64,000 nucleotides of DNA from Staphylococcus phage vB_StaM_PB50. The notes under the pieces were generated by a model. That model was not told where the DNA came from. It saw only the letters and a program-made list of their open reading frames with translations, and made no database searches. Shown piece by piece: positions 2,418-60,974 of this stretch; within the stretch, counting starts at the first letter, position 1, and every line of letters starts with the position of its first letter. The translations under genes were made by a program, and so were the position numbers. The stretch lies in sequence record OR770614.1; one strand, 5' to 3'.

Positions 2418-2500
2418 TCTATAAAGATGGAGCCTTTTTACTCATTGCTTCAAACATTACTTGATTATGTGGTATAAACGCCCACTCATCAAGCCAAACC
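2418..2500 (-). CDS. terL: terminase large subunit, internal mini-exon (Walker B)
   Basis: Short coding island between ribozyme cores translating PMVWLDEWAFIPHNQVMFEAMSKKAPSL, matching T4 gp17 MIYIEDCAFIPNF Walker B region; boundaries approximate. Confidence 0.5.
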
Positions 2501-3885
2501 ATAGGTCATTTACGTTAAACTGCATGGATTATCATGCAGATCAGACTATATCATAATTTTAATAATTTTTTCATAGGGATAATTAATTCTTCATTTATTC
2601 TATTCTGATAAGGGAGACGTATCATATTTATTCCTTTACTTCTTATAAATTTATCTTTTTCATTATCTAATTTTTTTATATCTTCAAGAGTTCTTGTGCG
2701 TTTATTTCTTTTATCATTAATAAAAGTTCCATAACCTTTTATATGTCCTTTTCCATCTACTTCAACTACAGTATTTATTTTTTTAAAATAAAAATCAAAT
2801 CTAAAACTAGATCCTTCAAAAGTAACTTCATTCTCATATTCTATATTATTCTCTTGAAGAAATTCAATAATGGCAATTTCTCCTATACTTTTAGAGCATA
2901 CACTACATCTTTTTCTTTTAAGTATATCATCTGGTCTTGTTTTAAATTTGTGTCCACAATCATTACTCTTCAAATAGATATAATCTTTGCTTCTAGTATA
3001 TTCAGTTAACACATTAAATTTATTATATCCAAATATCATATCTAATTCACCTTGAAACTCTTCTGTTGTCTTTTTAGATAATTCTTGACTATCTAATATG
3101 ATATAATTTTCATCATTTATACATCTATTACAGTTTACTGAATTATACTTCTTTCTTTTATCCATTAGAGTAGAAGGCTTTGCAAAATATCTTATATTTC
3201 CACATTTTCCACAACGGAATCTACACTTTTTATTCATTCCATTGAATCCTTCAATATAAGTATAATTAAATCCGAACTTATCTTTTAATTCTATTAAAAA
3301 AGTTTCTTTACCTTTAGAATTCTTGGGTTTTTCTGAATATCTACAATCTTTTCTATTACAGAATTTTCTCTTTAATCTTAATTTTTCAGTAGGTAAGAAA
3401 AAATCTCTATCACATATATTACAATGACATTTAATTGGTTCTTTAGAATTTTTATACTCTCCCAGTATTTCAAATTTATCTCCATTAATATCTTTTATTT
3501 CTTTAAAAGTTTTATTTCTCTGTTCTATGAATTTTTCTTTACTTTTAACACCTTTAGGCATTTTATCCCTCCGTTATCGTACTGATAAAAGAATGTTAAC
3601 AGTAAAAATTATTAAAATTGATTTTATTTAGTCGTTGAACACTAATTAAAGTGATGCTGATTAACTTCATTATTAGTCTTCCAGCAATTAAAAATCTTTA
3701 TGCACTGCATCTACATACGGTGCTACCTCTTCCTGCTTTGTTTGCCGTAATACATTGTATGATATTCATACACACTAGACTATATCTTATAATATTAATT
3801 ATCTCTATATTTAGTCGTTGAACAATCAATTTGATTGATGCTGATTGGTTTAGTATCTTTTTCAGCAGTTAATAGAGTTTAATGA
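2501..3885 (-). mobile_element. group I intron(s) in terL with two ribozyme core copies and a homing endonuclease ORF
   Basis: Core copy A (P,Q,R,S at ~3870-3775) then copy B (P,Q,R at ~3700-3620), ORF 3561-2551, then S element TATGATATAGTCTG and hairpin at ~2545-2505; either tandem introns or a twintron. Confidence 0.5.
2551..3561 (-). CDS. intron-encoded homing endonuclease, Cys-rich Zn-ribbon repeats + Vsr/DUF559-like PD-(D/E)xK domain
   Basis: 336 aa; repeated C..C...C..C/H modules; C-terminus TVVEVDGKGH...D..R...G..MIRLPY resembles EDxHD/Vsr-like nuclease (I-Bth0305I type); located inside intron. Confidence 0.5.
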   Translation of the reverse strand: MPKGVKSKEKFIEQRNKTFKEIKDINGDKFEILGEYKNSKEPIKCHCNICDRDFFLPTEKLRLKRKFCNRKDCRYSEKPKNSKGKETFLIELKDKFGFNYTYIEGFNGMNKKCRFRCGKCGNIRYFAKPSTLMDKRKKYNSVNCNRCINDENYIILDSQELSKKTTEEFQGELDMIFGYNKFNVLTEYTRSKDYIYLKSNDCGHKFKTRPDDILKRKRCSVCSKSIGEIAIIEFLQENNIEYENEVTFEGSSFRFDFYFKKINTVVEVDGKGHIKGYGTFINDKRNKRTRTLEDIKKLDNEKDKFIRSKGINMIRLPYQNRINEELIIPMKKLLKL

Positions 3886-4531
3886 GAGCACGTATTTTAC
3901 TCTCAGCATTTGTTGGAGGTGATACTGTTTTTATTGTGTTGTTATTACTTGCTAAAGAAAATTCATTAATTTTGTCTCTATCATTTTTATCACCAAAGTT
4001 AGCTAATACATAATCCGGTAAACATTTCTCTTTGAATAGATTTTTTAATCGTTTAAGGTTTTCAGTAGTGTCCGAGTACGATTTATGTGTAAATAACATT
4101 GTATAGTTATTACCTACCAATAACATAATCCATGAATAATAACATACTGCAGAATATGTTTTATAGTGCTGACGAGGTAACATTATTGCAGTATCTAAAT
4201 TATGCAACATACAAAAAGTCATAGCTAAATTACCTCTATGAAGTTCATACATTACTTTTCCACCCGGAACCGGAACTCTGATAACTTCTCTTAAATAAAA
4301 CCATATATTAAGTTTAGCTTCCCTAATAACACGTGTTTTCATTTCATTATCTAGATCTTCATCCCAAGGATCAACACCAATTAATTTCTTATCATATAGA
4401 GTTAATGGCAATCCATAATTTTGTATATTATTATCTTTAAGTTCTTTAGCAACTTTTAAAAAGCTTACATTATTAGTTTTATAATCGTAATAAATTTTTT
4501 TCTTTAATTTTGTTATAGCCATAGTCTTCAT
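3886..4531 (-). CDS. terL: terminase large subunit, 5' exon (Walker A ATPase region)
   Basis: ORF 3869-4531; LPRQHYKTYS Walker-A-like and alignment to T4 gp17 suggests exon ends near ...AESKIR (~3886), last ORF residues being intronic. Confidence 0.65.
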
Positions 4532-4545
4532 TCACTTCTTTCTTA

Positions 4546-5715
4546 CTATCTTGTCTTAGTATTAAGCCTATTAGAATATTTTATTATTCTTTGAATTTCA
4601 TCTAATTGTTTCTTGAGTTCTTTTTTAACTTCATTAGAATTATTATTGTTACTAATTTCAAATTTTAATGTCTTAATAACTGCATCAATTGAATCTGTTG
4701 GATAATCTTTATAACTTTTAATAAAACCACTCATAGGATATAAAAGTCCTCTCATAGCTTTAGCTATTAAGTTATTAGGTCTTTTTTCAGATTTCATTCT
4801 AAATGCTTTATACACTAAATCATAAAATTTAACCATTTCTACAGAATATCCATAAAGAGCAGGTAATTGGTTGGCAGATCTTTCTGAAAGATTATAATCC
4901 ATAGTAGTTTTTCTATTGAAACTTGCACTTGTTAGTAACATTCCTGTTCCCATAAATGAACCCATTGATATGCTAGCACCTATAAATACAGCAGTTAAAC
5001 ACATTACTAATGTTGACATTGCAAGAATCATAGGAGCCGCTAATACTCTATTTCTTCTAGTGTCAGCTTCTATTTCTTTAGTGTACTTAAACTGTACTGG
5101 TTTATTATCTTTATATTTGAGTTCGAATGTAGGAGTTTTACCACCAGAGAGTACATTAATTTCTACAGGGAAAAATAAATTATGACCTATTTCATGTAAT
5201 AATAAAAAAGTATACATTCTACCATTAAGAGTAGTAAATTCTTTTTGACCTGATTCTTTCTTTTCTATAAAATATCTCAATGAAGATAATTCAATATTCA
5301 CTTCAATTTCTCTAGGTTTAGAATAGTAAATACCATTCTTTTCTTCAATAACAATTTTAGTGATTCCATCTGTAATATTTCTAATTTCTTCAGGTTTAAT
5401 TAATGTGTGTGCTACTGAACCTACCCTAAATTTATCTCTTCCACGCTTATCCGCTTCAATAAATTTTAATTTCATATTAGTGTTAAATAATTTCTTAGCA
5501 ATATCTGATATTCTTTTTGCAATATCATTGTATTCATTCTTATTAATTACATCAAAATCAGATTTTTCAAAATTATACTTACTAATTAATGAATCAAATT
5601 CATCATCTATCTCTCTTAGTAATGAAGTATTTTTACCAAAGTTAAATGCATCTTCATTGATGTTCATTATTTTATTTATTTTATTTAATTGTATTTCTTC
5701 TTTTAAAGATACCAT
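4546..5715 (-). CDS. membrane HExxH zinc metallopeptidase-like protein (M48/M56-like), paralog A
   Basis: 389 aa; LLHEIGHNLFFP then EIEAD motif then two hydrophobic helices; paralogous to next gene. Confidence 0.45.
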   Translation of the reverse strand: MVSLKEEIQLNKINKIMNINEDAFNFGKNTSLLREIDDEFDSLISKYNFEKSDFDVINKNEYNDIAKRISDIAKKLFNTNMKLKFIEADKRGRDKFRVGSVAHTLIKPEEIRNITDGITKIVIEEKNGIYYSKPREIEVNIELSSLRYFIEKKESGQKEFTTLNGRMYTFLLLHEIGHNLFFPVEINVLSGGKTPTFELKYKDNKPVQFKYTKEIEADTRRNRVLAAPMILAMSTLVMCLTAVFIGASISMGSFMGTGMLLTSASFNRKTTMDYNLSERSANQLPALYGYSVEMVKFYDLVYKAFRMKSEKRPNNLIAKAMRGLLYPMSGFIKSYKDYPTDSIDAVIKTLKFEISNNNNSNEVKKELKKQLDEIQRIIKYSNRLNTKTR

Positions 5716-11139: not shown

Positions 11140-11322
11140 AAATAACTCTGTCGCTTCTTAAAGCAATTTAAGTCGAATAATATTATTAATTGCTGAAAAG
11201 AATTCATTAAATTAATCAGCATCCTCAAAAAGAGGTTCAACGACTAAATATAATATACTTAATTTATTAAGTAATGATATAGTCTAGTCTATATGAAATT
11301 CATATAGTTAATATAAACGTGG
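11140..11322 (+). mobile_element. group I intron, ORF-less (~180 nt)
   Basis: AATTGCTGAAAAG, AATCAGCATC, GTTCAACGACTAAAT, AATGATATAGTCTAG, hairpin CTATATGA...CATATAG; frame reopens at 11323. Confidence 0.55.
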
Positions 11323-21503: not shown

Positions 21504-24500
21504 TTGATTAGTATTCTAGATAAAGAACGTAAAAGAATTGAAGGTAAATTAGTTGCAGAAACTTTTGAAAATGTAATCTCTAGTGAGAAATTAGTATATG
21601 ATTTTAGTAAGAAAACTGAAATTATTGATATTGAATTCAAAAGTAAAAACTACATTTCAGAAAATACACATATAATTATTAAAGATGAAAGTAAGAATGA
21701 TTCTGAATTTGTTTGTATCGAAGAAAATGGTTTAAAATCTTCGTTAATTCCTGCTTATGTAAAAGATTTAAATAATGTCTTTATGAATTCTAATGAAGAA
21801 TTAAATGGACAATTAAAATCAGTATTAAGCACTTTATTATTGAATACAGGATATAATATTGAGTATAATGATTTAGTCGTTGATGAAGAAATTACTTTAT
21901 CTAAAAATAATAAATCTGTATTTGAAAAATTATTGGATATTGTATTTGAAAAAGATCTGTCTATTAGACATAAGTATGATATTAATACAAATGAAAGAAC
22001 TTTAATAATTAATAAAGGTAAAGATTTAAGAAAATCTAATCCTAAAGAAGTTTCTGGTAGAATTCCTGGTTTTGAATTTAATGTAGATAAATCAAATATT
22101 AAAACTGGTTTAATCATGTATAATGATAATAATGAATCTATTACTGTTAAAGACTCATTAAACCAAGCTAGATTTATTAAAGATGAAAATTATATATTTG
22201 ACACTATGGAAGTTAAAGGGAAAACTAGAGATGAAATGGAAGAGATTGCTTCTAAATACCTTAATGACAGTTCTTTGAATGCTATAGATTTAAAAATGAC
22301 TGGTTTAGTATTAAGAAATTGGACTAACTGTCATTATAATAAATTTATATCAAGTCAAATATTCATCAATTATAAAAATATAAAACCTGAGCTAACAGCA
22401 GGTTTCCAAATATATAAATTAGAGAGAAGTTTATTCGATTATAATATAGAGAAATTTAACTTCTTTGCTAAGCATAAAGATTCTAATGAAGTTTATAAAC
22501 CTGAAATGTTAGAGAATTATACTAAATACGCTAATGATAACATCTTTATTAAAGACAATACATCTTCTAAAAGTAATGATGTTAAATTAGTTGAATCTTT
22601 AGTTAATAAACAATTAGAGTCATTTAAAAATTATATTAATGATATTAGCAATAATAAAAATAGTGGTACAGATGGATCAAGTGTATTACAATCAAATAAA
22701 GAACTTAACTTTGATGCTATTATTTCTGATTTTAATTTAATTAAATCTCAAAAAGATCAAGTTGTTAACCAATTAAAATCTATATTTGATTCAGCTTATC
22801 TTAAAGAAGATGCAATTAAAATTCAGGTTAGAGATAAAATTAAAGAAATTAATAATGACTTTGATAAAATAAAATCTGAAGTCAATAAACTTAATAGAGC
22901 TGATCAGAATGAATCATTAATGAAAGATATTAATAAATCATTTGTAGGATTTTATTCTGTAGTTAATAGCACTAAAAGTATTATTGAATTATCTAATGAA
23001 GCTATTAACTTAGAAATGAATAAACTTCAAAATGAATATTCTCATGGTATTAAAGATACTGTATTTTCTGAAATTGGAAGAGTTTTAGGATTATCATATG
23101 ATAGTAAAACTCAAAAATTAACAGGAAATATCAATGTAACTGAGGATATCAATGAAGTAAAAACTTCTTTAGAATTAATGAGAGTAAAAGTTAATAGAAT
23201 TGAAAATGATCTTAATGACTCTGATAGAGGATTGAAAGAAAATTTAATTCGATTAACAGAAAATCTATCAAATGTACTAGGCTTACCTATTAACTCTGAA
23301 TCTGGTTTAATAGATGGAGCTATAGATAATCAAGATACGTTTGATCTTATCCAAAAACAGATTCAAAAAACTAAAGATGAAATTGCTGAATCTAAAGTTA
23401 ACTTAGAAAATACTAAAACAGAATTAGAAAAACAACAAGAAGAATTAGACCAAAAATCTAAAGATATAGATAAAGCTATGGCTGAAGCTAATAGGGTTAG
23501 AGAAGATTTAGGTCAAGAATTAGAAGTTTCTCAAAAAGAGTTTAATTACTATATGGATTCTCGTGGAGATAACTTAATTTTTAATGGTAATGCAGATCAA
23601 GGAGATGAATCAAATTTCCCTGGAATGTATTACGATAATTCAGATGCCTTTCAATCAGCAGCTTCATTTAGAATAGAAGGATTTAACTCTATTGTTTCTT
23701 CTGAAAGATTAATACCGATTAATCCAGAGAAGACATACAAACTTTCTATGTTTATGAAGAATAACAATTCTCTTCCTTCTTCTATAGGTCATTTAAGTTA
23801 TGATAAAGATGGACAATTAATAGAATCTCAACATGTAATGGGTAGTGAAAAACCTGTAATTGAATTAGCTCAAGAATTAAGACAAGGAGATAAAGTTATT
23901 TATTTCAATAGTCTTGATGGTCTTGATGATACTTATAGATTCCAGTCTGCTCCGTTAGATGAAGAAGATGACACTCCTGTTTATGATTATGATAGAGATG
24001 GATCAGTTGTATTACCTAGTGATGCAGATGATATTCTTTCTATAGATGATCCTAATGCCATTCCTGATGAAGAAGAAGACACTATAATATATGCAGAGGA
24101 CACGCCTGAAGAAGATAAAACTACAGAACCTGATGTTCCTATGCCTGATTCTGATGAGCCGGTTGAAACTAATTCAACTCCAGTAGATGAAGAAGAAGCT
24201 ATTAAGAATATGACTAATAATTATAATGTGTCTAATGCTGGAATTGTTAATAGAAATATTAATCCTAATTTAACGGATTATAACGATAATCATTCATTAG
24301 TTATTTGGAATTTCAAGAGTAATGATGGATATAATTATGGTGAATCTACTTATTCTAGAAATGTATTCATGAATGGTTGGGATTATGGTGCTATTGATAG
24401 AGAAAATAATTGTATTTATCTTAATAGACCTTTTGATTTAATTAATTATGATTCTGAAGATGGAGGTTTCCCTGCTGGAACTAAAGTTTCAGGAACATTC

Positions 24501-27500
24501 ACTGATAGTAATGTTGAATGGTCTTTAATTAAAGATGAAGATATCCCTAATGAAGATCAAGATGATGATCCTGAAGAATTTAATGGATGGTATCACCGTC
24601 AATCCTTAATAACTAAAGAAAATATTAGAGGTACTAATGGCTTCTTATATGGTGCTTTCTATATGACATTATACTTTAAAGTAAACCAAATAGAAGATTC
24701 GGATGTTATTGAATTTGAAGATGGATCTAGTGAGCCTAAATTTTGGTTAACTAATATGGAAATGTATGATGTTACAGGTTTAGAATCTGTTAAGAAAACT
24801 GTTATAGATACTAATGAATTAGTAGCTACTATGATGACTAAAAAAGAAATGGATGATTATCGTAAACAGGTAGTCGAAGGTTTCTCTGAAGTTAGTCAAA
24901 CTGTAGATATGATTCGTCAAGAAGTTTCTAAGAAAATAGAAGATTTAGATGATAAAGTAATGACAGATATTACATCCAGAATAGAAACTATAGCAGGACA
25001 GATAGATTTAGTTTCTGAATCACAAAAAGTTGATAAAGAAGAATTAGAAAAACAGATTGGTCAAATAAAAATTGAAACTGACAAAATTACATCATTGGTG
25101 CAAAGAATAGACACAGCTGAAGATAATTACAGTGATTTATCAACTAAAGTAGAACAGCTTGATAGCAGCTATACGATTACAGCAGAAAAGGTTGAAAAAC
25201 AGGGAACTGACATAACAGATCTTTCTGGAAAATTAACAGTTGCGAATAATGCTATAACTCAAGAAGTTAAAGATAGAAAATCTGCAGTTGATGATGCCAT
25301 TGAATCTTCTAAAGCATTAGTTAAAGTTGAAGCTGATAGAATTACTAATTTAGTATCCAAACAAGAATCTACGGATGATACAATATCTAATTTAGAAACT
25401 AGTATTACTGCTGAAATAGGTAAAATAGAAAATAAAGTCACTAATGAAACTAGTGTAGAAGCACTGTCTAATAAGATTAAAATTGGTGGAAATAATTTAT
25501 TAGTAGGTACTGAAAAATTTGATTTGCCTTTTAATAAGACAAGCTTCAGTAGATATGGTGGAATAATCAAAGATGGAATTGGATATTCACTAGATTATAA
25601 TACTGAATCTAACCGATTAGCATGGAGTATATTCCAGAACGTAGATGTAATTCCTAATACAGATTATGTATTAAGTTATAATGCACATAATAAAGAAGGA
25701 ATTACTCAAGGAATTGCATATACTCCTATAATGAGATTAACTGATGATGGTAAAATTTTCGATTCTTTAGAGTATATTATAACTAGTGATACTTATCGAG
25801 AAACTAAAGAAGATATTGACAATCGATATGTAGTTAAATTTAATACAGGTAAAAGTAGAAAAATAAGAATTTACTTTACCTCTAAAGATGTAGATAGTTT
25901 AGCTTACATTTCTAAACCTCAATTAGAATTAGGTAATATTGCTACCGATTGGGGTTTATCTAAGGGAGATCTTGAAGACAGATTTAACAAAGCTGAAACT
26001 AGAATTACTCAGACTGAAGAAGATATTACTCTAAACGCTACTAAATTAACCGAAACTGGTAATCTAATTGAAAAAAATTATTCTGAACTTAAAGTGGAAA
26101 CAGATAAAATTAGTAGTATTGTAAGTGAACAGAAAATATTAGATGATAAAATTTCCGCTAATACTTCTAGCATTAAACAGTTACCTAATCAAATTACTAG
26201 TCAAGTTTCTGCTGTAGAAAAAAGAGTTAATGAGAATATTAATAATATTCAAATTGGTGGAAGAAACTTATTATTGGATAGTTTGAATAAAACAATCTTT
26301 AAACCTAATAATAAAGGATTAGGAATTCCAACAAAAAATAGTGATAATTCTTGGAATTTAACTCCAGACTCAGATAAATCTATTAGTTCTTATTATTTTA
26401 TAAGAGATTCCAATTCAAATGACATAACTTCTGTTGAAATGAAAACTAATGTATGGTATACTTTTTCAATTGATTTAATATTACCTAAAGATTTAAAAGT
26501 TGAAATTGGAATTAATAGTGATGGTATATCCAGACCAGAAGGTATATCTTCTAAATACGATTATCATAATATTAAAGCCAATGAAAGAACAAGAATAGGT
26601 TTTACGTTTAAATGGATTGATAAAAATATAATTGAAAATATTCCAATTATAATACGTCTTAATGAAAGTAACTCTATTGGTATACCTATAATTTATGATA
26701 AAGCTAAATTAGAATATGGTAATAAAGCCACTGATTGGTCTCCAGCACCTGAAGATATTGAAACTAGATTAGTTGCAAGTGAAACTCGTATAACTCAAAC
26801 TGAGAAGGATATAAGTTTAAATGCTTCTTCTATTACGACATTAGATAATAAAACTACTAATCAATACAGTACACTTAAAGTTGAAACTGATAAAATTAGT
26901 GGTATTGTTAGTAAACAAGAAGAAATGGATGATAAAATTGCCACTAATACTTCTAGCATTAAACAGTTACCTAATCAAATAACATCACAAGTTTCTGCAG
27001 TAGAAAAAAGAGTTAATGAGAATATCAATAATATTCAAGTAGGTGGAAGAAACTTATTAGAAAACAGTTTATCTTGGAATAAAGGTTTTGAAGATAATTC
27101 AAATGGTTCCTATAAATATTTATGGAGAATTTATATTGATGAATTATTGAATAAAGTGGATATCGGAGATGAAATTTCTATATCATTTGATTTACAAATG
27201 GAACGTGGAGATGTTTTCAGAATATATGATAGTGTAGTAGATCCAGGAATGTCTATTGGTAGTGATACAATAACTAATGTTGGTAATAAAAAATTTAAAT
27301 ATAAATATACTTCTAAAATAACTAAGACTTCTGGAGATAACACTAGATGGGCTATATATGCTTATAATAATAATAATGGAGATAAATTCTCCATTGAAAA
27401 TATTAAAATAGAAAAAGGTAATAAAGCTACTGACTGGACACCTGCTCCTGAAGATATTGAGACTTCAATATCAACTGTATCTTCTAAAATAGATCAGAAA

Positions 27501-29849
27501 GCAGATTCTATTGAACTATCTGTTAATAAAATAAATAATTATCTTAATGCAGATAATACACTTATTAACTCTGATCTTAGAAATGGATGGGAAGGATGGA
27601 CAACAGTTGATGATGAAACGTCTAAAAATTTAAACTATGCTGAAGAAATAAATAGTGGTTATTGGATATTTACTAATTCAGGAGATGAAGTTGCGATAAC
27701 TGATAAAAATCTAACAGATAAAGATTATTTAACTTTAAGTGCAAATAATGAAGGATGGAAGCAGTGGCAACTTTCTGATGTTGATTATTCTGATGGTAAT
27801 GGAAGTCCTAAAATGTCTAAGATTAGTGCTGGAACATATACAATTAGCATGCAAATAAGAAAAGACGAAGGTAGTACAGGAAATTTCAACCCTTATATAA
27901 GAATAAATGGAGATTCTACTGTAGACCCAATAAAACTAGATATTGATGTCGATTCTGAAATTGATACTGATTGGAAGGAATTTACTGTAACAGGAAATAT
28001 AAGTTCTAGTGATCTAAAAAATAAGTATCGTATAAGACTTATTTTAGTATATACAACTGGTTCGGTAGGTAAAGTTTATGTAAGAAATGTAAGATTAGAT
28101 AAATCAAATTACCCTCAAAATCCTAGATTCTCAATAGCTCCCGAAGAAGATATGACATTTAATATCGATAACAACTTAGCTCTGGGGTCAGTTTATCGTT
28201 TAAACAATGTATCCAGAGGAACTTATAAAAGAATGACTCTTTTATTAAATGGATATTTAAAAAAGAATACTAAATATAAAGTTGCATTTGATTATAATAT
28301 ACAATCTGGAAAGAATAGTGAAGGTTTAATTTCATTATATCCATATAGATATCCTTATAAAGGTTCAGGGTACTCAACTGATGTGGATACATTACCTGAA
28401 ATTAGTTCAGTTAATAGATTAGATTATCCTGTTAGTGCGAATAAAAGAAACGTAATAGAGATTACTACTCCTAATGAAGATAAAATTAATCAGCTATTAT
28501 TTTATGGTGCAAAAGCAGGAACTACAGATAATTCTGAGATTGTGACTTCCTTTGAAAATATAGTTGTTAAAGAATCTAAAGATGTTTCTAATGATAGTGA
28601 TATGTCATATAATGCAAATGAAGTGAAAAATGTATTTAAGTATAAACAGAATACATTCGGCTCTAGGTGGCCTGCAATTACTTCTAGTTATATGCCGGTA
28701 GGACAAGATGGACAGTTTAACATTGGTGACTATGTAACAGGTTCTGTTTATATATACATTCCTGCAACTGCTAGAAAATATCTTAGTTATAAAATATATT
28801 TTGAAGTCGCTACTTACGAAAATACATCACAGACAGGAAATCCTAAATTTGGAGTTGTTGAAATACCTGCCAGTGAATTTGTTTTTGGCGAGTGGAAACG
28901 TTATAGTTTTACCGCCAAAATACCTAGAACTTCTGATAACGGACAAACTAATTATTTAAGATTCTTATTGCGTTATAATAATTATGACAAAGCTGATGTA
29001 TATAATGATGGAACTGTATTCTATTATGCAATTCCAAAATTAGAAAAAGGGGATCAATTAAAACCTTGGACACCATCACCTTTAGATAAATATAGTACTC
29101 AATCAATGTCTAGTAAAATTGCAATGAATTCTGAAGCTATTAAAATGATATCTAGGAATATAGATTTAAATACGGATAAAGTTAGAATATATAATGATAA
29201 AGGTAATATGGTGTTTACTAATGATGTATTAAGAATATCAAAGACTGCTTTAGATACTGATAATTTTGTAGAGATCAATTCAAAAGGATTAAATATTAGA
29301 AAAAATGGCGTTGACCAAGCTGTAGATGGAAAGTTTAAAGGTGAGTCTAACGTTCAGCAAACTATACCTATGGGTAGAAGTTTTAATCCACCTGGTCCCA
29401 ATAAATTGGACGGTCTTTATCATGTACAAGAAATAGCAGGAGCATACTATCTTGATGCAGAAATGTATAGTTATGCTGCTAAGAAAAAGCATTTAACTGA
29501 AGGTGGAGGTGCTTATAATGCATTACTAGGTTCATTTTCATTTTATCATGATAAAAGATACTTAGTAATGAGTTTTACCTACGATACATCTAAAAATGCA
29601 AATTTATATGTTACAGTGGCTGCAGGAGTTGGATGGAAAACTGATTCAAAAACAGCTTTGTATTTTGATAAAAAATATACTTCAGAATCTAAAGGAATAA
29701 TCTCTGAATATATAGATTTAGGTACTCCTAATAACTATAATAAAACATTAGTAATACAATTAGGTATAACAGGAACCTCTAAAGAAGGCGAAGGTGGATC
29801 AATAACTATTAAACGTCTATCATTAAGTAACTTTAACTCCCCTTCATAA
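21504..29849 (+). CDS. giant tail fibre / host-adhesion protein (2781 aa)
   Basis: TTG start with GGAAGGATGGTG RBS; long coiled-coil stretches; four modules ending GN(K/I)ATDW(S/T)PAPEDIE typical of phage fibre carbohydrate-binding modules; internal DNA repeats. Confidence 0.6.
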   Translation: MISILDKERKRIEGKLVAETFENVISSEKLVYDFSKKTEIIDIEFKSKNYISENTHIIIKDESKNDSEFVCIEENGLKSSLIPAYVKDLNNVFMNSNEELNGQLKSVLSTLLLNTGYNIEYNDLVVDEEITLSKNNKSVFEKLLDIVFEKDLSIRHKYDINTNERTLIINKGKDLRKSNPKEVSGRIPGFEFNVDKSNIKTGLIMYNDNNESITVKDSLNQARFIKDENYIFDTMEVKGKTRDEMEEIASKYLNDSSLNAIDLKMTGLVLRNWTNCHYNKFISSQIFINYKNIKPELTAGFQIYKLERSLFDYNIEKFNFFAKHKDSNEVYKPEMLENYTKYANDNIFIKDNTSSKSNDVKLVESLVNKQLESFKNYINDISNNKNSGTDGSSVLQSNKELNFDAIISDFNLIKSQKDQVVNQLKSIFDSAYLKEDAIKIQVRDKIKEINNDFDKIKSEVNKLNRADQNESLMKDINKSFVGFYSVVNSTKSIIELSNEAINLEMNKLQNEYSHGIKDTVFSEIGRVLGLSYDSKTQKLTGNINVTEDINEVKTSLELMRVKVNRIENDLNDSDRGLKENLIRLTENLSNVLGLPINSESGLIDGAIDNQDTFDLIQKQIQKTKDEIAESKVNLENTKTELEKQQEELDQKSKDIDKAMAEANRVREDLGQELEVSQKEFNYYMDSRGDNLIFNGNADQGDESNFPGMYYDNSDAFQSAASFRIEGFNSIVSSERLIPINPEKTYKLSMFMKNNNSLPSSIGHLSYDKDGQLIESQHVMGSEKPVIELAQELRQGDKVIYFNSLDGLDDTYRFQSAPLDEEDDTPVYDYDRDGSVVLPSDADDILSIDDPNAIPDEEEDTIIYAEDTPEEDKTTEPDVPMPDSDEPVETNSTPVDEEEAIKNMTNNYNVSNAGIVNRNINPNLTDYNDNHSLVIWNFKSNDGYNYGESTYSRNVFMNGWDYGAIDRENNCIYLNRPFDLINYDSEDGGFPAGTKVSGTFTDSNVEWSLIKDEDIPNEDQDDDPEEFNGWYHRQSLITKENIRGTNGFLYGAFYMTLYFKVNQIEDSDVIEFEDGSSEPKFWLTNMEMYDVTGLESVKKTVIDTNELVATMMTKKEMDDYRKQVVEGFSEVSQTVDMIRQEVSKKIEDLDDKVMTDITSRIETIAGQIDLVSESQKVDKEELEKQIGQIKIETDKITSLVQRIDTAEDNYSDLSTKVEQLDSSYTITAEKVEKQGTDITDLSGKLTVANNAITQEVKDRKSAVDDAIESSKALVKVEADRITNLVSKQESTDDTISNLETSITAEIGKIENKVTNETSVEALSNKIKIGGNNLLVGTEKFDLPFNKTSFSRYGGIIKDGIGYSLDYNTESNRLAWSIFQNVDVIPNTDYVLSYNAHNKEGITQGIAYTPIMRLTDDGKIFDSLEYIITSDTYRETKEDIDNRYVVKFNTGKSRKIRIYFTSKDVDSLAYISKPQLELGNIATDWGLSKGDLEDRFNKAETRITQTEEDITLNATKLTETGNLIEKNYSELKVETDKISSIVSEQKILDDKISANTSSIKQLPNQITSQVSAVEKRVNENINNIQIGGRNLLLDSLNKTIFKPNNKGLGIPTKNSDNSWNLTPDSDKSISSYYFIRDSNSNDITSVEMKTNVWYTFSIDLILPKDLKVEIGINSDGISRPEGISSKYDYHNIKANERTRIGFTFKWIDKNIIENIPIIIRLNESNSIGIPIIYDKAKLEYGNKATDWSPAPEDIETRLVASETRITQTEKDISLNASSITTLDNKTTNQYSTLKVETDKISGIVSKQEEMDDKIATNTSSIKQLPNQITSQVSAVEKRVNENINNIQVGGRNLLENSLSWNKGFEDNSNGSYKYLWRIYIDELLNKVDIGDEISISFDLQMERGDVFRIYDSVVDPGMSIGSDTITNVGNKKFKYKYTSKITKTSGDNTRWAIYAYNNNNGDKFSIENIKIEKGNKATDWTPAPEDIETSISTVSSKIDQKADSIELSVNKINNYLNADNTLINSDLRNGWEGWTTVDDETSKNLNYAEEINSGYWIFTNSGDEVAITDKNLTDKDYLTLSANNEGWKQWQLSDVDYSDGNGSPKMSKISAGTYTISMQIRKDEGSTGNFNPYIRINGDSTVDPIKLDIDVDSEIDTDWKEFTVTGNISSSDLKNKYRIRLILVYTTGSVGKVYVRNVRLDKSNYPQNPRFSIAPEEDMTFNIDNNLALGSVYRLNNVSRGTYKRMTLLLNGYLKKNTKYKVAFDYNIQSGKNSEGLISLYPYRYPYKGSGYSTDVDTLPEISSVNRLDYPVSANKRNVIEITTPNEDKINQLLFYGAKAGTTDNSEIVTSFENIVVKESKDVSNDSDMSYNANEVKNVFKYKQNTFGSRWPAITSSYMPVGQDGQFNIGDYVTGSVYIYIPATARKYLSYKIYFEVATYENTSQTGNPKFGVVEIPASEFVFGEWKRYSFTAKIPRTSDNGQTNYLRFLLRYNNYDKADVYNDGTVFYYAIPKLEKGDQLKPWTPSPLDKYSTQSMSSKIAMNSEAIKMISRNIDLNTDKVRIYNDKGNMVFTNDVLRISKTALDTDNFVEINSKGLNIRKNGVDQAVDGKFKGESNVQQTIPMGRSFNPPGPNKLDGLYHVQEIAGAYYLDAEMYSYAAKKKHLTEGGGAYNALLGSFSFYHDKRYLVMSFTYDTSKNANLYVTVAAGVGWKTDSKTALYFDKKYTSESKGIISEYIDLGTPNNYNKTLVIQLGITGTSKEGEGGSITIKRLSLSNFNSPS
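26095..26285 (+). repeat. intragenic direct repeat, copy 1
   Basis: ~190 bp, >90% identical to 26875-27065 over its core (CTAATACTTCTAGCATTAAACAGTTACCTAATCAAAT...GGTGGAAGAAACTTATTA). Confidence 0.7.
26875..27065 (+). repeat. intragenic direct repeat, copy 2
   Basis: Pairs with 26095-26285; encodes KVETDKISxIVSxQ...TNTSSIKQLPNQITSQVSAVEKRVNENINNIQ. Confidence 0.7.
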
Positions 29850-57748: not shown

Positions 57749-57943
57749 TTATCTATTTTTCTGACACTGTTTAGCTAATTCCCTCATCACCTTTGTTCTC
57801 TTTGCCCCTTTCTTTGCTACTGCTCTATTTCTCTTGTAATTTCTCACCATTTGATTTAGAATTTCTCTCATCTTTATCTTCTCCTTTATATAATAATAAG
57901 AATAACGATCTAATAAGACCGTTATTCTAAAAAATCTATTCAC
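57749..57943 (-). CDS. small basic protein
   Basis: 64 aa, K/R-rich; 8-nt overlap with RNAP beta-prime exon 2. Confidence 0.3.
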   Translation of the reverse strand: MNRFFRITVLLDRYSYYYIKEKIKMREILNQMVRNYKRNRAVAKKGAKRTKVMRELAKQCQKNR

Positions 57944-58133
57944 TAGCTTTAATATCTACATTTTTTGATTTAGGATTATTTAATAAATAAACAGCTATTT
58001 GTGAGTCTTTATTAAGTGAGTAAGTTCTATTAAACAATCCATCATTATATGAAATTAATTGGTTTACTGGATCTTGTACTTTTAATTGTTCGTATTGTTC
58101 TTCTGAAAATAGTGCTATGATATTTAAAGTATC
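57936..58133 (-). CDS. RNA polymerase beta-prime-like N-terminal fragment, exon 2
   Basis: DTLNIIALFSEEQYEQLKVQDPVNQLISYNDG aligns with beta-prime [33 protein letters not shown] directly after NADFDGD; begins right after intron terminal G at 58134. Confidence 0.55.
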   Translation of the reverse strand, partial: DTLNIIALFSEEQYEQLKVQDPVNQLISYNDGLFNRTYSLNKDSQIAVYLLNNPKSKNVDIKASE

Positions 58134-59861
58134 CATTTATCTTAACCTACATTTAATATATAGGATGAGACTATATCTTATGGTTTCCCATTTATATATT
58201 TAGTCGTTGAACCTTATAATTAGGATGCTGATTAGTTTCAAACTGTCCCAGCAATTAATATGATTTATTGAAGGCAATAAATCAATAAATTTTATAATTC
58301 ATTAAAATATTTCCGCTATTCCAAATTCGATAAACACCCGATTGTTTTTTAGGAAAATCTGAGTATTCCATGTTTTCATTAATGTAATTTGGAAAGTATT
58401 CTGGTATAATAGATTTTTCAAATTCATGAACTGAATAAATATTTCTTTTAAAAATTATTTTACATGTAGATTTTAATTCTTTAACATAATTAAAACCAAA
58501 ATCTTTGAAATATTTACCATCAGAATAATCTTTATTTATTATTAAATCTATTGTTTTTATATTGTTTCTTTTGAAATATTTAATTGAATTACTTAATAAT
58601 TTAAATAAACCACCATTTACAATTGTTTTATTACTAAAAGCAAATTTTTCTAATTTAACTTTATTCTTATTTATATAATTATATGACATAATTGCAATTA
58701 TTTCATCATTAATTTTTAATGAAAAATTAATATCATGAGAGGAATTTATATAGGTACTATTATTTTTATAGAAGTTTTTAGCGTCATAATCGTTAATTAT
58801 TTCAAAATTACATTCTCTAGCATTTATTTTCTTTTCTTGAAAATAATCTATAGAATACAATATCCTATTAATTATTAAATCTTTTTTAAACTCGTAATCT
58901 AATGAGTTAATAAAATATATTTCAATATCAAAATTATTTTTAAAAAAATCTTTCTTATGTTTATGATATTCTTTATTTTTCATTTTATCTGAATGATAAT
59001 AGTATCCATTAAATTCAAATCCTATTTTTTTATCTGGAAAGAATAGATCTACTTCATATATTTGATCATTAAAAGAGAATCTTTTGTTATTTAAAATAAT
59101 TCCTTTATATGATTCTTTTATATATTTTATTAATTCAATTTCTTGATTAGATTTAATATTTTTACAAAGAGGACATCTATATCCTTGTTGAAAGTCATTA
59201 ACTCTTACACTATAAATATTACCACATTTTTTATGTTTTATTGGATATTTTTCTTTATTATTGAATTTATAATTTAAATCCAACCATTCATATTCATTAC
59301 CATCTTTAGATTCAGATAATATTTTTATTAAATAATTTTCATCATCTTTATAATAATATTTACCTCTTTTTTTATTTGAACAAAAAGGACATCTTCTTTT
59401 CTTATTTCCCAAAAATAAGCGTGGTTCTACTTTATATTCATTTCCGCATATTTCATGTCTTAATAAAACTTTATCGCTACCATTTTTATTAAAACCTTCT
59501 ATATAAGTATAATCTTTATTTTCTTTTTTAATTTCTTCAAAAAAGTCTTTATCCGATATATTTTTATAATTTCTAGCTTTTTTATTCCCTTCATTTTTAA
59601 AACATTTCGGACATCTTCCTTTTCCTTCATTTAAGAAAATATTACCTTTAGATACTCTATATTCTTCACCACAAATTTTATGTTTTAAAATAAAAGGCTT
59701 TGAAGTTCCCTCATAATTGCTTATTAATTCATAATTATTATTATCTATATTTTTTATTTTGTTTATTACATCTTCTTCTGTTAATTTAGGTGGCATAAAC
59801 TCATCCTTTCAATTAATTATTAAGGAGGTTTATTTAAATTTATTTTTTATTGATAATTTTT
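58134..59861 (-). mobile_element. group I intron with homing endonuclease gene, inserted in beta-prime catalytic motif
   Basis: 5' splice after ...GADYDG (U at 59862); ORF 59796-58282; then P AATTGCTGGGAC, Q AATCAGCATCC, R GTTCAACGACTAAAT, S AAGATATAGTCTC and terminal G. Confidence 0.6.
58282..59796 (-). CDS. intron-encoded endonuclease (Zn-ribbon repeats + DUF559/Vsr-like domain + C-terminal extension)
   Basis: 504 aa; repeated C..C/H..C..C modules as in terL intron ORF; YEVDLFFPDKKIGFEFNGYYYHS nuclease-like segment. Confidence 0.5.
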   Translation of the reverse strand: MPPKLTEEDVINKIKNIDNNNYELISNYEGTSKPFILKHKICGEEYRVSKGNIFLNEGKGRCPKCFKNEGNKKARNYKNISDKDFFEEIKKENKDYTYIEGFNKNGSDKVLLRHEICGNEYKVEPRLFLGNKKRRCPFCSNKKRGKYYYKDDENYLIKILSESKDGNEYEWLDLNYKFNNKEKYPIKHKKCGNIYSVRVNDFQQGYRCPLCKNIKSNQEIELIKYIKESYKGIILNNKRFSFNDQIYEVDLFFPDKKIGFEFNGYYYHSDKMKNKEYHKHKKDFFKNNFDIEIYFINSLDYEFKKDLIINRILYSIDYFQEKKINARECNFEIINDYDAKNFYKNNSTYINSSHDINFSLKINDEIIAIMSYNYINKNKVKLEKFAFSNKTIVNGGLFKLLSNSIKYFKRNNIKTIDLIINKDYSDGKYFKDFGFNYVKELKSTCKIIFKRNIYSVHEFEKSIIPEYFPNYINENMEYSDFPKKQSGVYRIWNSGNILMNYKIY

Positions 59862-60974
59862 ACCATCATAGTCTGCACCCATACCAGCAAGTATATTATT
59901 ACTGATACCTACTACTGATGATTCTATATCTTGAATTATATCTTTAATTTTTAATATTTGAACTGAGCTTTCACTAATACTGGGATTTCTATTTAAAATA
60001 ACTCTCATTCCATTTTCAGTTTTATCAACTAGTTCTCTCATATATTTATATACTTTAGGATTAAATGTATCTAATGCTCTGTCTAATATTTCTTCACCTT
60101 TAGCTAAAGGAATATTTTCTGTTACATACATTAAATTTGCTAAGATAGGTTTATATACTTCTAAGAAGATGGTATAATTTAATCTAATTTCATTTAATTT
60201 AAGGTCAGGTGCTGGAACAATTACTGAACGTGCAGAGAAACCAACACGACTACCCATTAGTAATTTACGAATAGTTCCACCTTTACCTTTAATATTCTCA
60301 TTAATTACACGATCACTAATATTAATACTATCATCTTGAATTTTACTTAATAGATTTAATTTTTGTAACTCTACTGAATCATCTGTATAATGTCTATCAA
60401 GTTCTTTAATACTATTACTATGAGCAATTAATAAATTATAATCTTTATTAATTTCAGAATGTCTAAAAGTTTTAGTAGCTTTATTAACTGTAGCAGGTCT
60501 TAATTTAGGACTAAATACAGTTACATAATTTTGGAATAGTAAATCAGATAAATACCATTGTACTACTCTATTGTAATCTTTAGTTTTACGTTTTTCACGT
60601 TTAACTTCTTCTTTAAGAATTTTTAAGAAATTCTTTCTAAATTCAATTAAACCAATATAAGAGTTATGATCATCTTCAGGTTCAATTACATTACCATTTT
60701 CATCAATAGGTTTTTCAGAACTAATAATTTCTTGGAATCTTTTATTACCAATTAATTTTTTAACACGTTCATAACCTAACGGATTTAAAATATAATTATT
60801 ACCTAAATCTACAATAGCTTCATTAGTAATATTATCTGCTTCTGAATCAGGACCGAAGATTTTCTCACTGAAGATACCATCTTCAGTGAAATCACCTTTC
60901 TTATCAATTGATTCATGATTAGTTACAACTGGAACATTTTCTAAATCCTTTTTCTTGAGTAAAAATCTAACCAT
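59862..60974 (-). CDS. RNA polymerase beta-prime-like N-terminal fragment, exon 1
   Basis: GKGGTIRKLLMGSRVGFSARSVIVPAPDLKLNEIRL matches beta-prime [24 protein letters not shown]; ends ...NILAGMGADYDG (NADFDGD). Confidence 0.65.

Follow-up and report, generated by a model that had tools for sequence, protein, structure and literature searches.

The closest described counterpart of the locus analysed here is found in Bacillus phage AR9. Its gene g270, for the beta'-N subunit of the non-virion RNA polymerase, has been annotated as a joined coding sequence with an intron (GAC GGT|...G|GAC) that carries an HNH endonuclease gene, g271; the AR9 exon junctions have been described as experimentally determined (Korn et al., bioRxiv 10.1101/2020.12.14.422802 / J Virol 2021). 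The same authors reported introns, with exon boundaries that vary from phage to phage, in the genes for an RNA polymerase subunit, DNA polymerase, terminase, prohead protease and gyrase of MarsHill-like Staphylococcus jumbo phages, the clade to which the present phage also belongs; these were predicted by protein alignment only, and neither RNA structures nor guides nor endonuclease classes were given. A further published group comprises zinc-finger/Vsr-like endonucleases from introns in jumbo-phage RNA polymerase beta'-N genes, in which three to five CapR/DUF4379-like repeats of ~60 aa are followed by a Vsr-like nuclease. Finally, an intron endonuclease residing in an RNA polymerase subunit gene of phage PhiPA3 targets PhiKZ (Birkholz et al. 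2024, reviewed in PMC12908238).

The locus described here lies in a 64,000-nt stretch of Staphylococcus phage vB_StaM_PB50 (OR770614.1), hereafter called the window. With a probability of roughly 90%, we read it as a mobile group I intron that interrupts beta'-N at the catalytic ADYDG|D motif, that would be removed by splicing, and that would spread by site-specific cleavage and homing. As in AR9 g270, the host gene is a non-virion beta'-N, the insertion falls at ..DYDG|D.. after GGT, and the insert bears a putative homing endonuclease gene; since AR9 holds an intron at the identical site, ours is a further example of an already known occupancy. The two introns also share a guide that begins with GCC and is followed, after a spacer of ~10 nt, by TTAATTG(T/C)CTGGG, as well as the 3' end ...AAATG. 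They differ in host genus (Staphylococcus rather than Bacillus), in that the AR9 open reading frame (ORF) encodes an HNH enzyme and sits in P6, whereas ours encodes a zinc-finger/Vsr-like/GNAT protein and sits in the P1 loop, and in that the AR9 ribozyme has extra, IA2-like helices after P7 (CGACTATCGAAA...GTAGAGTAC) which are missing here. A covariance model derived from our intron does not detect that of AR9. The encoded protein matches the published zinc-finger/Vsr-like enzymes in its repeats and nuclease; however, their architecture ends at the nuclease, while ours adds a GNAT/Mom-like domain of ~180 aa, their published figure concerns the virion polymerase beta'-N and not the non-virion one, and the fifth motif residue of our protein is His, not Asp. 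MarsHill beta'-N was reported to be intact by Korn et al., whereas that of the present phage is interrupted. With PhiPA3 the locus shares an intron-borne homing endonuclease in a multisubunit RNA polymerase gene of a jumbo phage, although the two endonucleases belong to different families, as do the two phages, and neither the host nor the subunit is the same.

The interruption in the beta'-N catalytic motif

A sequence-only reading of the region had placed the insert between a U closing exon 1 and an exon 2 that resumes with D-TLNIIALF and restores ADYDGD. These boundaries proved exact to the base, and intron-less alleles agree with them (Table 1). On the minus strand, exon 1 ends with ggt atg ggt gca gac tat gat ggT (59862), the insert ends with ...ataaatG, and exon 2 opens with gat act tta aat at 58133. 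The insertion point thus separates the Gly codon from the final Asp codon in the catalytic motif, to which the Pfam RNA_pol_Rpb1_2 match of exon 1 extends, and the claim of that reading that the catalytic DxDGD codons themselves are split is borne out by the uninterrupted genes of Madawaska, MarsHill, S6 and LY01. In Madawaska, MarsHill, S6, PALS_2, DC4 and SA1 the beta'-N protein runs through as ...GMGADYDGDTLNIIALF, the LY01 site is uninterrupted by nucleotide comparison, and the intron-less Madawaska/LY01 allele reads continuously as GATTATGATGGTGATACT across the insertion point. Joining of the exons would yield the junction peptide ...ADYDGDTLNIIALF and, conceptually, a beta'-N protein with 99.8% identity to that of Machias and 88.5% to that of Madawaska. 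In the unspliced frame, exon 1 is followed by four intron codons (KNYQ) and then a stop. Because the third catalytic Asp is encoded in exon 2, an intact active site needs RNA splicing, just as had been argued for the activity of the polymerase.

Table 1. Features of the interrupted beta'-N locus (positions in the window; the parts of the ORF are given in amino acids).
Feature	Position	Strand	Details
Exon 1, non-virion RNA polymerase beta'-N	59862..60974	(-)	371 codons, ends ...GMGADYDG, last base U 59862; Pfam RNA_pol_Rpb1_2 E = 6.7e-8
Group I intron	58134..59861	(-)	1728 nt; first base A 59861, terminal G (omega-G) 58134; intron-less alleles
P1 5' strand	59854..59868	(-)	exon -7 to -1 (59868-59862) and intron +1 to +8
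Predicted leader hairpin (tentative)	59795..59833	(-)	anti-Shine-Dalgarno CCTCCTT 59828-59822 with ribosome-binding site AAGGATGAG 59808-59800 and part of start codon
Putative homing endonuclease ORF	58282..59796	(-)	504 aa; in P1 loop
Three CapR/DUF4379 zinc fingers	~aa 4-214 of 504-aa ORF		
Vsr/EDxHD-like nuclease domain	~aa 215-322 of 504-aa ORF		
GNAT/Mom-like C-terminal domain	~aa 325-504 of 504-aa ORF		
P1 3' strand	58269..58284	(-)	ORF stop TGA 58284-58282; internal guide GCCTTC 58275-58270
P3 5' strand	58258..58263	(-)	all 6 pairs vary on both sides across the family
P4-P5 domain	58226..58253	(-)	P element TTGCTGG; P5 hairpin AGTT-TGA-AACT; Q element TCAGCA
P6 hairpin	58212..58224	(-)	short in this copy, 3-5 bp
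J6/7, P7 5' strand, P3 3' strand	58192..58211	(-)	R element TTCAACGACTAAA; P7 GACTA 58205-58201; P3 3' 58197-58192
P8 hairpin	58180..58191	(-)	ATGG-GAAA-CCAT; GNRA-type tetraloop
J8/7 and P7 3' strand	58169..58179	(-)	S element AAGATATAGTC
P9 hairpin	58146..58164	(-)	7 bp
Exon 2, beta'-N	57936..58133	(-)	D-TLNIIALF..., 65 codons and stop; holds third Asp of DxDGD

A compact ribozyme core and its pairing with the exon

The P, Q, R and S elements of the insert (AATTGCTGGGAC, AATCAGCATC, GGTTCAACGACTAAA and AAGATATAGTCT), described as canonical by the sequence-only reading, do agree with the Rfam RF00028 consensus (AAUUGCGGgAAA, AAuCCGCAGCC, GGUUCAaAGACUAAA and AAGAUAUAGUCu), and the terminal G that it had named is present at 58134, the corresponding G being the one on which the covariance-model alignments of several sibling introns end. 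Five R...S motif pairs occur in the window against 0.00 expected; the resemblance to a group I core is not a matter of chance. The insert has a predicted P1 and a core of P3 to P9, the latter with support from covariation. Among 21 distinct family members, in an alignment that was fitted to the model's structure and thus favours it, 96.1% of pair cells are paired (62.1% after shuffling, 32-40% with the partners slid) and 29 of the 32 pairs show changes on both sides, values reached by none of 500 shuffles; P7 is invariant across the family and hence uninformative in this respect. An anchor-based comparison of cognate with chimeric folding in 107 members, which is independent of the covariance-model alignment, likewise favours the cognate strands of P6 (-5.4 versus -1.1 kcal/mol), P8 (-4.2 versus -1.3) and P3 (-4.1 versus -1.1). 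With MAFFT followed by RNAalifold on eight members, misalignment of the variable hairpins left no helices but P4 and P7, which are invariant.

The core of this copy is AU-rich and weak, with four to five A-U pairs in P3, 3 bp in P6 and 4 bp in P5, and its minimum free energy reaches a z-score of only -1.7. No Rfam family, RF00028 included, matches the intron region at E <= 1. Since ORF-less sibling introns and the annotated AR9 intron are missed as well, this search has little sensitivity for AU-rich, reduced or ORF-bearing introns of this kind, and we rejected its outcome as an argument against an intron; it does find GC-richer introns with the same R and S elements. Typical phage group I introns, for example those of T4 td and Twort, are of the IA2 type. 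The P7.1/P7.2 helices of that type are absent from the core described here, in which just 3 nt separate P7 from the 3' strand of P3 and P8 then follows; P2 and P9.1 are not found in it either.

The upstream exon would be held by an extended P1 of 15 pairs (-10.2 kcal/mol, RNAduplex) with a U59862.G58275 wobble at the splice site. Within it, GAUGGU and the guide GCCUUC form five of six pairs, the remaining one being a U.U mismatch, while the guides of AR9 (GCCGTC) and of two metagenomic phages, L126 and L128 (GCCATC), pair perfectly with their own exons. A guide hexamer of this quality is expected by chance at 1.7% of positions, or at 0.06% if GCC is required, and its distance of 11 nt to TTAATTGCTG is the one seen in sibling introns. 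Immediately 5' of the guide, TTATT could form P10 with GATA of exon 2. The endonuclease ORF thereby comes to lie in the P1 loop rather than in a distal loop, with the guide downstream of it and its stop codon within the P1 stem.

Two other accounts of the insert bear on these results. First, insertion of the endonuclease gene could have split beta'-N into two separately translated chains, of 371 + 4 aa and of 66 aa, which come together in the enzyme without RNA splicing. The last three intron bases are indeed ATG, in frame with exon 2, and would open a 66-aa ORF (M-DTLNIIALF...); jumbo-phage RNA polymerase subunits are naturally split already, and endonuclease insertion is known to split genes, as in Aeh1 nrdA/mobE. 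We nevertheless regard such a split as very improbable, given that a covarying group I core lies directly 5' of exon 2 and ends on that very G, that the AAATG/AAACG tail is kept in siblings where an ATG would be out of frame with the following exon, that no convincing ribosome-binding site precedes this ATG, that the three catalytic Asp residues would be distributed over two chains, and that AR9 is annotated as spliced at the identical site. Second, the intron may be real and removed in vivo, yet only with the help of a protein cofactor, be it a host or phage RNA chaperone, the passage of ribosomes or an intron-encoded maturase. We consider such dependence unlikely but worth bearing in mind: the weak P3, P5 and P6 of this copy, the missing P2, P7.1/7.2 and P9.1, the mere 153-182 nt of sibling introns and the 1.6-kb ORF that holds the P1 strands apart would all fit with it, whereas the full set of catalytic-core elements together with the P8 GNRA tetraloop, and an ORF without likeness to any known maturase, argue for a ribozyme that works unaided. 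In vitro, self-splicing is common among small group I introns of phages and bacteria, which also weighs against a cofactor.

A zinc-finger/Vsr-like ORF in the P1 loop

The 504-aa endonuclease ORF that the sequence-only reading had noticed inside the insert is open throughout and matches PHROG 559 at E = 4e-60. Direct sequence searches with the protein against PDB and NCBIfam returned nothing, and a profile of the nuclease domain was required to match I-Bth0305I (PDB 3R3P; E = 1.8e-9). The protein retains E219, D250, N263, H268 and K281, the first four of which align with E170, D196, N208 and H213 of I-Bth0305I; the fifth motif residue of the latter, D222, is His in the endonuclease lineage to which the protein belongs. 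Judged from this homology, the intron ORF is a member of a Vsr/EDxHD-like endonuclease lineage with CapR-type zinc fingers. Its C-terminal domain shows a GNAT fold and is Mom-like, which was unexpected, and the lineage consensus FLxxNH(I/L)QG of this domain reads FYKNNSTYINSS in our copy and is thus degenerate.

This degenerate motif, together with the absent Rfam match, might be taken as a sign that the insertion is decaying and beta'-N a pseudogene. Such an outcome seems hardly credible to us for a named phage isolate in which a presumably essential non-virion RNA polymerase has no second beta'-N copy in the window, in which both exons are intact and encode a protein nearly identical to that of Machias, the reading frame of the endonuclease is unbroken and keeps the catalytic residues, and the ribozyme core is intact and scores within the range of its siblings.

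Upstream of the ORF, the predicted leader hairpin (-7.2 kcal/mol, z = -1.4) is not significant alone, nor is the analogous hairpin in the homologous leader of L128 (z = -1.7). CCTCCTT occurs only once on this strand within the window. With the stop codon of the ORF inside the P1 stem and a ribosome-binding site that could be hidden, translation of the endonuclease and splicing are probably mutually exclusive, such that any one RNA molecule would serve either the one or the other.

Given a mobile group I intron, we propose the following course of events. In the pre-mRNA, the exon end GAUGGU would pair with the guide GCCUUC, 1.6 kb downstream and right after the ORF, to create the U.G wobble of P1. 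The P3-P9 core with its guanosine-binding P7 could then carry out two transesterifications, the second ending at the terminal G, and joining of the exons would restore the Mg-binding Asp triad. The Vsr/EDxHD-type enzyme, targeted by its zinc fingers, would presumably cut the intron-less beta' gene of co-infecting relatives near GATTATGATGGT|GATACT, and repair of the cut allele by recombination would copy in the intron along with the endonuclease gene.

Recurrent occupation of the DxDGD codons

The association of this endonuclease lineage with this site recurs. In L126 and L128, introns at this DxDG|D site bear homologues of the enzyme in their P1 loops, and the ribozymes of these introns carry an extra post-P7 segment, as does that of AR9; in two further metagenomic phages, L125 and L129, the homologues are free-standing beside intact beta' genes. 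The near-identical beta'-N genes of sister phages have introns 9 and 15 nt away instead. With three insertion sites, at 0, 9 and 15 nt, lying within 15 nt, the DxDGD codons are a hotspot contested by mobile introns.

A covariance model of the core detects the other members of the family in the window (E = 4e-11 to 6e-5) as well as both Machias introns; a weaker match (E = 0.11) covers the 3' half of an ORF-split intron in the window. Another weak match, at 28023-28105, was rejected as chance, being inside a 2781-aa ORF. Sibling introns share the conserved 3' tail ...AAATG or ...AAACG, and those that have no ORF, at only 153-182 nt, are missed by Rfam. In the case of the terminase gene, an S6 allele without the intron fixes the exon 2 frame of the intron-bearing one.

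It is possible, and we put this forward tentatively, that these introns form a distinct and very reduced group I class, with no P2, no P7.1/7.2, a minimal P5/P6, in some members no P9 and, in ORF-less ones, the lengths just given, a class that goes undetected by curated Rfam, has multiplied to some 8-25 copies in each genome of the Staphylococcus jumbo phages and occurs widely among metagenomic ones. At the RNA polymerase site, it would have been joined to an endonuclease cassette (leader, P1-loop ORF and stop in P1) that is found on AR9-type ribozymes or free-standing elsewhere, and the GNAT/Mom-like domain might give the enzyme a part in DNA modification or DNA binding undescribed for homing endonucleases. 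If true, the locus would capture in nature how endonuclease genes and ribozymes recombine independently of each other.

Taken together, we see in this intron a second, independent occupant of one homing site in the catalytic loop of RNA polymerase: in AR9 an HNH enzyme rides an IA2-like ribozyme, whereas here a zinc-finger/Vsr-like enzyme rides a compact one. Annotation that relies on Rfam will overlook such introns and call essential genes truncated. The occurrence of the same endonuclease lineage in free-standing or intronic form at this site can serve to test how mobile introns come to be assembled, and the locus as a whole raises the question of whether co-infecting jumbo phages compete by way of such endonucleases, as PhiPA3 and PhiKZ do.

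The beta'-N gene and its intron-less alleles

The 5' open reading frame (ORF) of the non-virion RNA polymerase beta'-N gene, which runs from 60974 to 59847 on the minus strand, falls in PHROG 2987, a family with the annotation "RNA polymerase beta subunit"; its C-terminal 130 residues align with Pfam RNA_pol_Rpb1_2 as far as position 144 of the 166 in the profile, reaching the catalytic DxDGD loop. Exon 1 ends in ...NNILAGMGADYDG, the final T of its Gly codon lying at 59862, and the frame then continues as KNYQ-stop; after an insert of 1728 nt ending in ...ataaatG, exon 2 begins with gat act tta aat and encodes D-TLNIIALFSEEQYEQL... (65 codons). Read on the minus strand, the intron boundaries proposed by the sequence-only reading, 58134 and 59861, proved exact.

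DNA identity to the Staphylococcus jumbo phages Machias, AH12, Madawaska, MarsHill, S6, PALS_2, DC4 and LY01 (85-93%) is confined to the flanks. When the conceptually spliced protein was used as a tblastn query, it was covered over 100% of its length in a single piece in PALS_2, DC4, S6, MarsHill, Madawaska and SA1 (86-89% identity), and likewise over 100%, in two pieces, in Machias and AH12 (99.3-99.8%). The Madawaska gene is one 436-aa ORF reading ...GMGADYDGDTLNIIALF... (annotated "non-viral RNA polymerase beta-prime subunit, N-terminal"), and the LY01 site is uninterrupted at the nucleotide level (gcc gat tat gat ggt gat act tta). Since the relatives' alleles are uninterrupted there, the PB50 insert is, on this comparison, an optional element between the Gly and third Asp codons of the Mg-binding motif. 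That the intron's last three bases are an in-frame ATG could perhaps suggest a genes-in-pieces arrangement of beta'-N; this is, however, contradicted by the ribozyme terminating on the G of that very ATG, by the AAAYG tail being conserved in sibling introns (those sharing the compact core), by the lack of a ribosome-binding site before the ATG and by the AR9 precedent at this site. A pseudogenised beta'-N is contradicted by exons, ORF and core all being intact in a phage isolate.

The Machias protein is 99.8% identical to that of PB50, and its gene has no intron at the PB50 site, carrying instead two ORF-less family introns, 9 and 15 nt 5' of the PB50 insertion point and parted by a 6-nt micro-exon (GCCGAT). 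In these near-identical genes three insertion points, that of PB50 and the two of Machias, thus lie no more than 15 nt from the catalytic codons. Were the PB50 endonuclease to recognise a site that spans its own insertion point, either Machias intron would break that site and might thus confer immunity to the enzyme. At 153-182 nt, family members without an ORF would be smaller than the Azoarcus intron (205 nt), usually quoted as among the smallest group I introns.

Introns and endonuclease ORFs of PB50 and of related or metagenomic phage loci (slash, splice junction)
Feature	Coordinates	Strand	Remarks
PB50 beta'-N intron	59861-58134	minus	
PB50 504-aa ORF	58282..59796	minus	in P1 loop
Terminase intron 1	3898-3746	minus	153 nt, validated against intron-less S6 allele
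Terminase intron 2	3716-2507	minus	1210 nt, ORF in P8
Terminase intron 2 ORF	3561-2551	minus	336-aa zinc-finger/Vsr-like endonuclease
Terminase intron 3	about 2425-2270	minus	
ORF-less family intron	10710 to about 10876	plus	about 165 nt, guide GCTCAC pairs with exon
ORF-less family intron	11140-11319	plus	180 nt, guide GTCG pairs with exon
Machias intron 1	L001 2799-2980		182 nt, after GGT of ..GMG
Machias intron 2	L001 2987-3166		180 nt, after GAT of ..AD
LY01 intron	L003 2906-3066		161 nt, LNR/NPS motif of beta'-N, without P9
AR9 g270 intron	L124 3545-4441		annotated
L126 intron	about 2988-4634		
L125 free-standing homologue	3001-4491		3' of uninterrupted beta' gene
L129 free-standing homologue	2429-3967		3' of uninterrupted beta' gene

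Within the window, the large terminase gene is split by three introns of the same family, its exon 2 measuring only 29 nt. For terminase intron 3 the frame and the S6 allele (gcaatgag/accggca) demand G, not U, as the final exon base; P1 (GAGU/GCUC) has its U.G wobble one base further 3', and joining at U(-1) and the terminal G shifts the reading frame and brings in a stop. TerL was likewise not reconstructed by Korn et al. (bioRxiv 10.1101/2020.12.14.422802). The two plus-strand introns split one gene at about 10.4-11.7 kb.

The ribozyme core

The conserved group I elements lie in the 148 nt 3' of the ORF as AATTGCTGGGAC (P), AATCAGCATC (Q), GGTTCAACGACTAAA (R) and AAGATATAGTCT (S), for comparison with the Rfam RF00028 consensus of AAUUGCGGgAAA, AAuCCGCAGCC, GGUUCAaAGACUAAA and AAGAUAUAGUCu. 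The R...S pair, CAACGACTA-N(10-40)-GATATAGTC, was counted 5 times in the window (0.00 expected) and is present in more than 120 IMG/VR stretches, mainly on contigs of 200-400 kb; a BLAST search with the core as query gives 8-25 copies in each Staphylococcus jumbo-phage genome.

In P1, the last exon bases and the first intron bases, UGAUGGU/AAAAAUUA, pair with 58284-58269 (-10.2 kcal/mol), with U59862 wobbling against G58275 of the guide GCCUUC, exactly 11 nt 5' of TTAATTGCTG. The guides of two P2-less siblings (GCTCAC, GCTCTC) keep this 11-nt spacing and pair 6/6 with their own exons. An equally well fitting hexamer is found at 1.7% of window positions, or 0.06% if GCC is required, and a chance match at a fixed position is therefore unlikely. 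UUAUU immediately 5' of the guide could pair with exon 2 GAUA as a 4-bp P10, a pairing read directly from the sequence that is weak evidence since the RNA is AU-rich.

For the P1-P9 fold, which the sequence-only reading had named as a check, P1 forms 15 pairs, P3, P6 and P8 beat their chimeras, and pairs of the modelled P3-P9 core covary. In the chimera test, 107 non-redundant members were parsed by sequence anchors and their hairpin segments compared with chimeras of different members' halves; cognate and chimeric energies were -5.4 vs -1.1 kcal/mol for P6, -4.2 vs -1.3 for P8 and -4.1 vs -1.1 for the P3 duplex. A covariance model built from the target core only, with a hand-drawn P3/P4/P5/P6/P8/P9 structure, recovers the window's other family introns (E = 4e-11 to 6e-5) as well as both halves of one that bears an ORF. 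It also matches the two Machias introns and 20-odd introns from metagenomes, and several of its alignments stop at the predicted terminal G. A weak match at 28023-28105 (E = 0.5) was dismissed as chance; it falls inside a single 2781-aa ORF (21504-29849, plus strand). Among 21 distinct sequences, standard pairs fill 96.1% of pair cells (62.1% when shuffled, 32-40% with partners slid), 29/32 pairs show changes on both sides and the covariation score is 0.765 (0.18 shuffled, <=0.096 slid), values reached by 0/500 shuffles; this alignment was fitted to the model's own structure and is biased toward it, a bias of which the anchor-based chimera test is free. The target core is weak, with 4-5 A-U pairs in P3, 4 bp in P5, 3 bp in P6 and an MFE z-score of only -1.7, so that splicing which depends on a cofactor in vivo, and is not autonomous, is a live alternative.

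The endonuclease and its recurrence at the site

GenBank already holds a protein identical (100%) to the 504-aa ORF, named "homing endonuclease [Staphylococcus phage vB_StaM_PB50]", and the ORF matches PHROG 559 end to end (E = 4e-60). Pfam detects DUF4379 zinc fingers only; alignment with 20 homologues resolves three C..C/H..C-type repeats, each about 60 aa long and with almost unchanging His and Cys residues, followed by a block in which E219, D250, E261, G264 and K281 are invariant. A profile of this block matches PDB 3R3P (E = 1.8e-9), the catalytic domain of I-Bth0305I, which is the EDxHD family prototype and homologous to Vsr, and also 3HRL (0.005). Homology thus assigns the ORF product to the Vsr/EDxHD lineage of homing endonucleases, and it carries an additional domain. 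Its nearest full-length homologue matches Pfam Mom (E = 5e-6), and the lineage motif FLxxNH(I/L)QG of this GNAT/Mom-like C-terminal domain is degenerate in the target. A similar architecture, CapR/DUF4379-like zinc fingers and then a Vsr-like nuclease, was reported in 2025 as that of a large outgroup of homing endonucleases that had gone unrecognised.

In the AR9 annotation, g270 (non-virion beta'-N) is a joined CDS that encloses g271, an HNH homing endonuclease gene. The g270 junctions, ggc gac tat gac ggT/aaggcgatt GCCGTC tttaaacctc tttaattgtctggg ... and ...ataaactaaatG/gac gta ttg aat, place the insertion point identically to that of PB50, with P1 a perfect 6 bp. Homologues of the PB50 endonuclease (37-39% identity) sit at this position in two phages from metagenomes, L126 (...NADFDG/aaaggaatgatttt ATG...ORF...taa tattaaaacatt GCCATC ...core...attG/gat gta cta aat) and L128 (...GGDFDG/...ORF...tatatc GCCATC.../D MVTIRG), and in each the P1 loop houses the ORF, the guide coming 3' of its stop codon. 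Free-standing homologues are found in L125 and L129, 5-24 nt 3' of beta' genes that retain the target site (...NADFDGDVLNIV... or ...GADFDGDTVSIR...); together with the intron-borne copies they resemble stages through which mobile introns are assembled. The ribozymes of AR9, L126 and L128 differ from the target's in an extra segment after P7 (CGACTATCGAAA...GTAGAGTA...), and the target-derived model found no match in the two of these that were searched, AR9 and L126. As the target ribozyme is most closely related to further introns of the same genome and to the Machias introns, endonuclease cassette and ribozyme seem to have separate histories.

Proposed mobility and regulation, and detection by Rfam

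In the mechanism we propose, P1 would pair across a 1.6-kb loop, the P3-P9 core would carry out two transesterifications and exon ligation would restore ADYDGD, while the P1-loop protein would cleave intron-less alleles and repair would copy the element. As the UGA stop codon (58284-58282) falls within P1, ribosomes that translate the ORF to its end would melt that helix. A predicted leader hairpin at 59833-59795 on the minus strand (-7.2 kcal/mol; not significant alone, z = -1.4), in which an anti-Shine-Dalgarno CCUCCUU can mask the ribosome-binding site, may also act in regulation. The L128 endonuclease leader (2440-2502) has an analogous predicted CUCC/GGAG hairpin (not significant alone, z = -1.7) and likewise begins AAAAUU.CAAUAAAAA, the 5' motif common to both leaders being AAAA(A)TT..CAATAAAAA.

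In kind the arrangement is already known: in the jumbo phage AR9, too, a group I intron carrying a homing endonuclease interrupts beta'-N within DxDGD. The intron richness of the Staphylococcus jumbo-phage clade is likewise known. What is new is PB50's particular combination of ribozyme and endonuclease, an ORF in the P1 loop with its stop codon inside P1, the GNAT/Mom-like extra domain, the clustered alternative insertion sites at catalytic codons and a compact intron class undetected by Rfam. Rfam searches gave no match for the target insert or for its ORF-less siblings; RF00028 gave none for the AR9 g270 and L126 introns at E <= 1, nor for AU-rich type-1 introns in IMG/VR loci L090, L091, L099 and L108 at E <= 0.1, whereas GC-richer introns with the same R/S elements are matched at 54-95 bits. 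Because the annotated AR9 intron and the ORF-less siblings are missed too and the GC-richer ones detected, the negative result on the target reflects model sensitivity. Given the RF00028 misses, jumbo-phage introns will systematically escape Rfam-based annotation.
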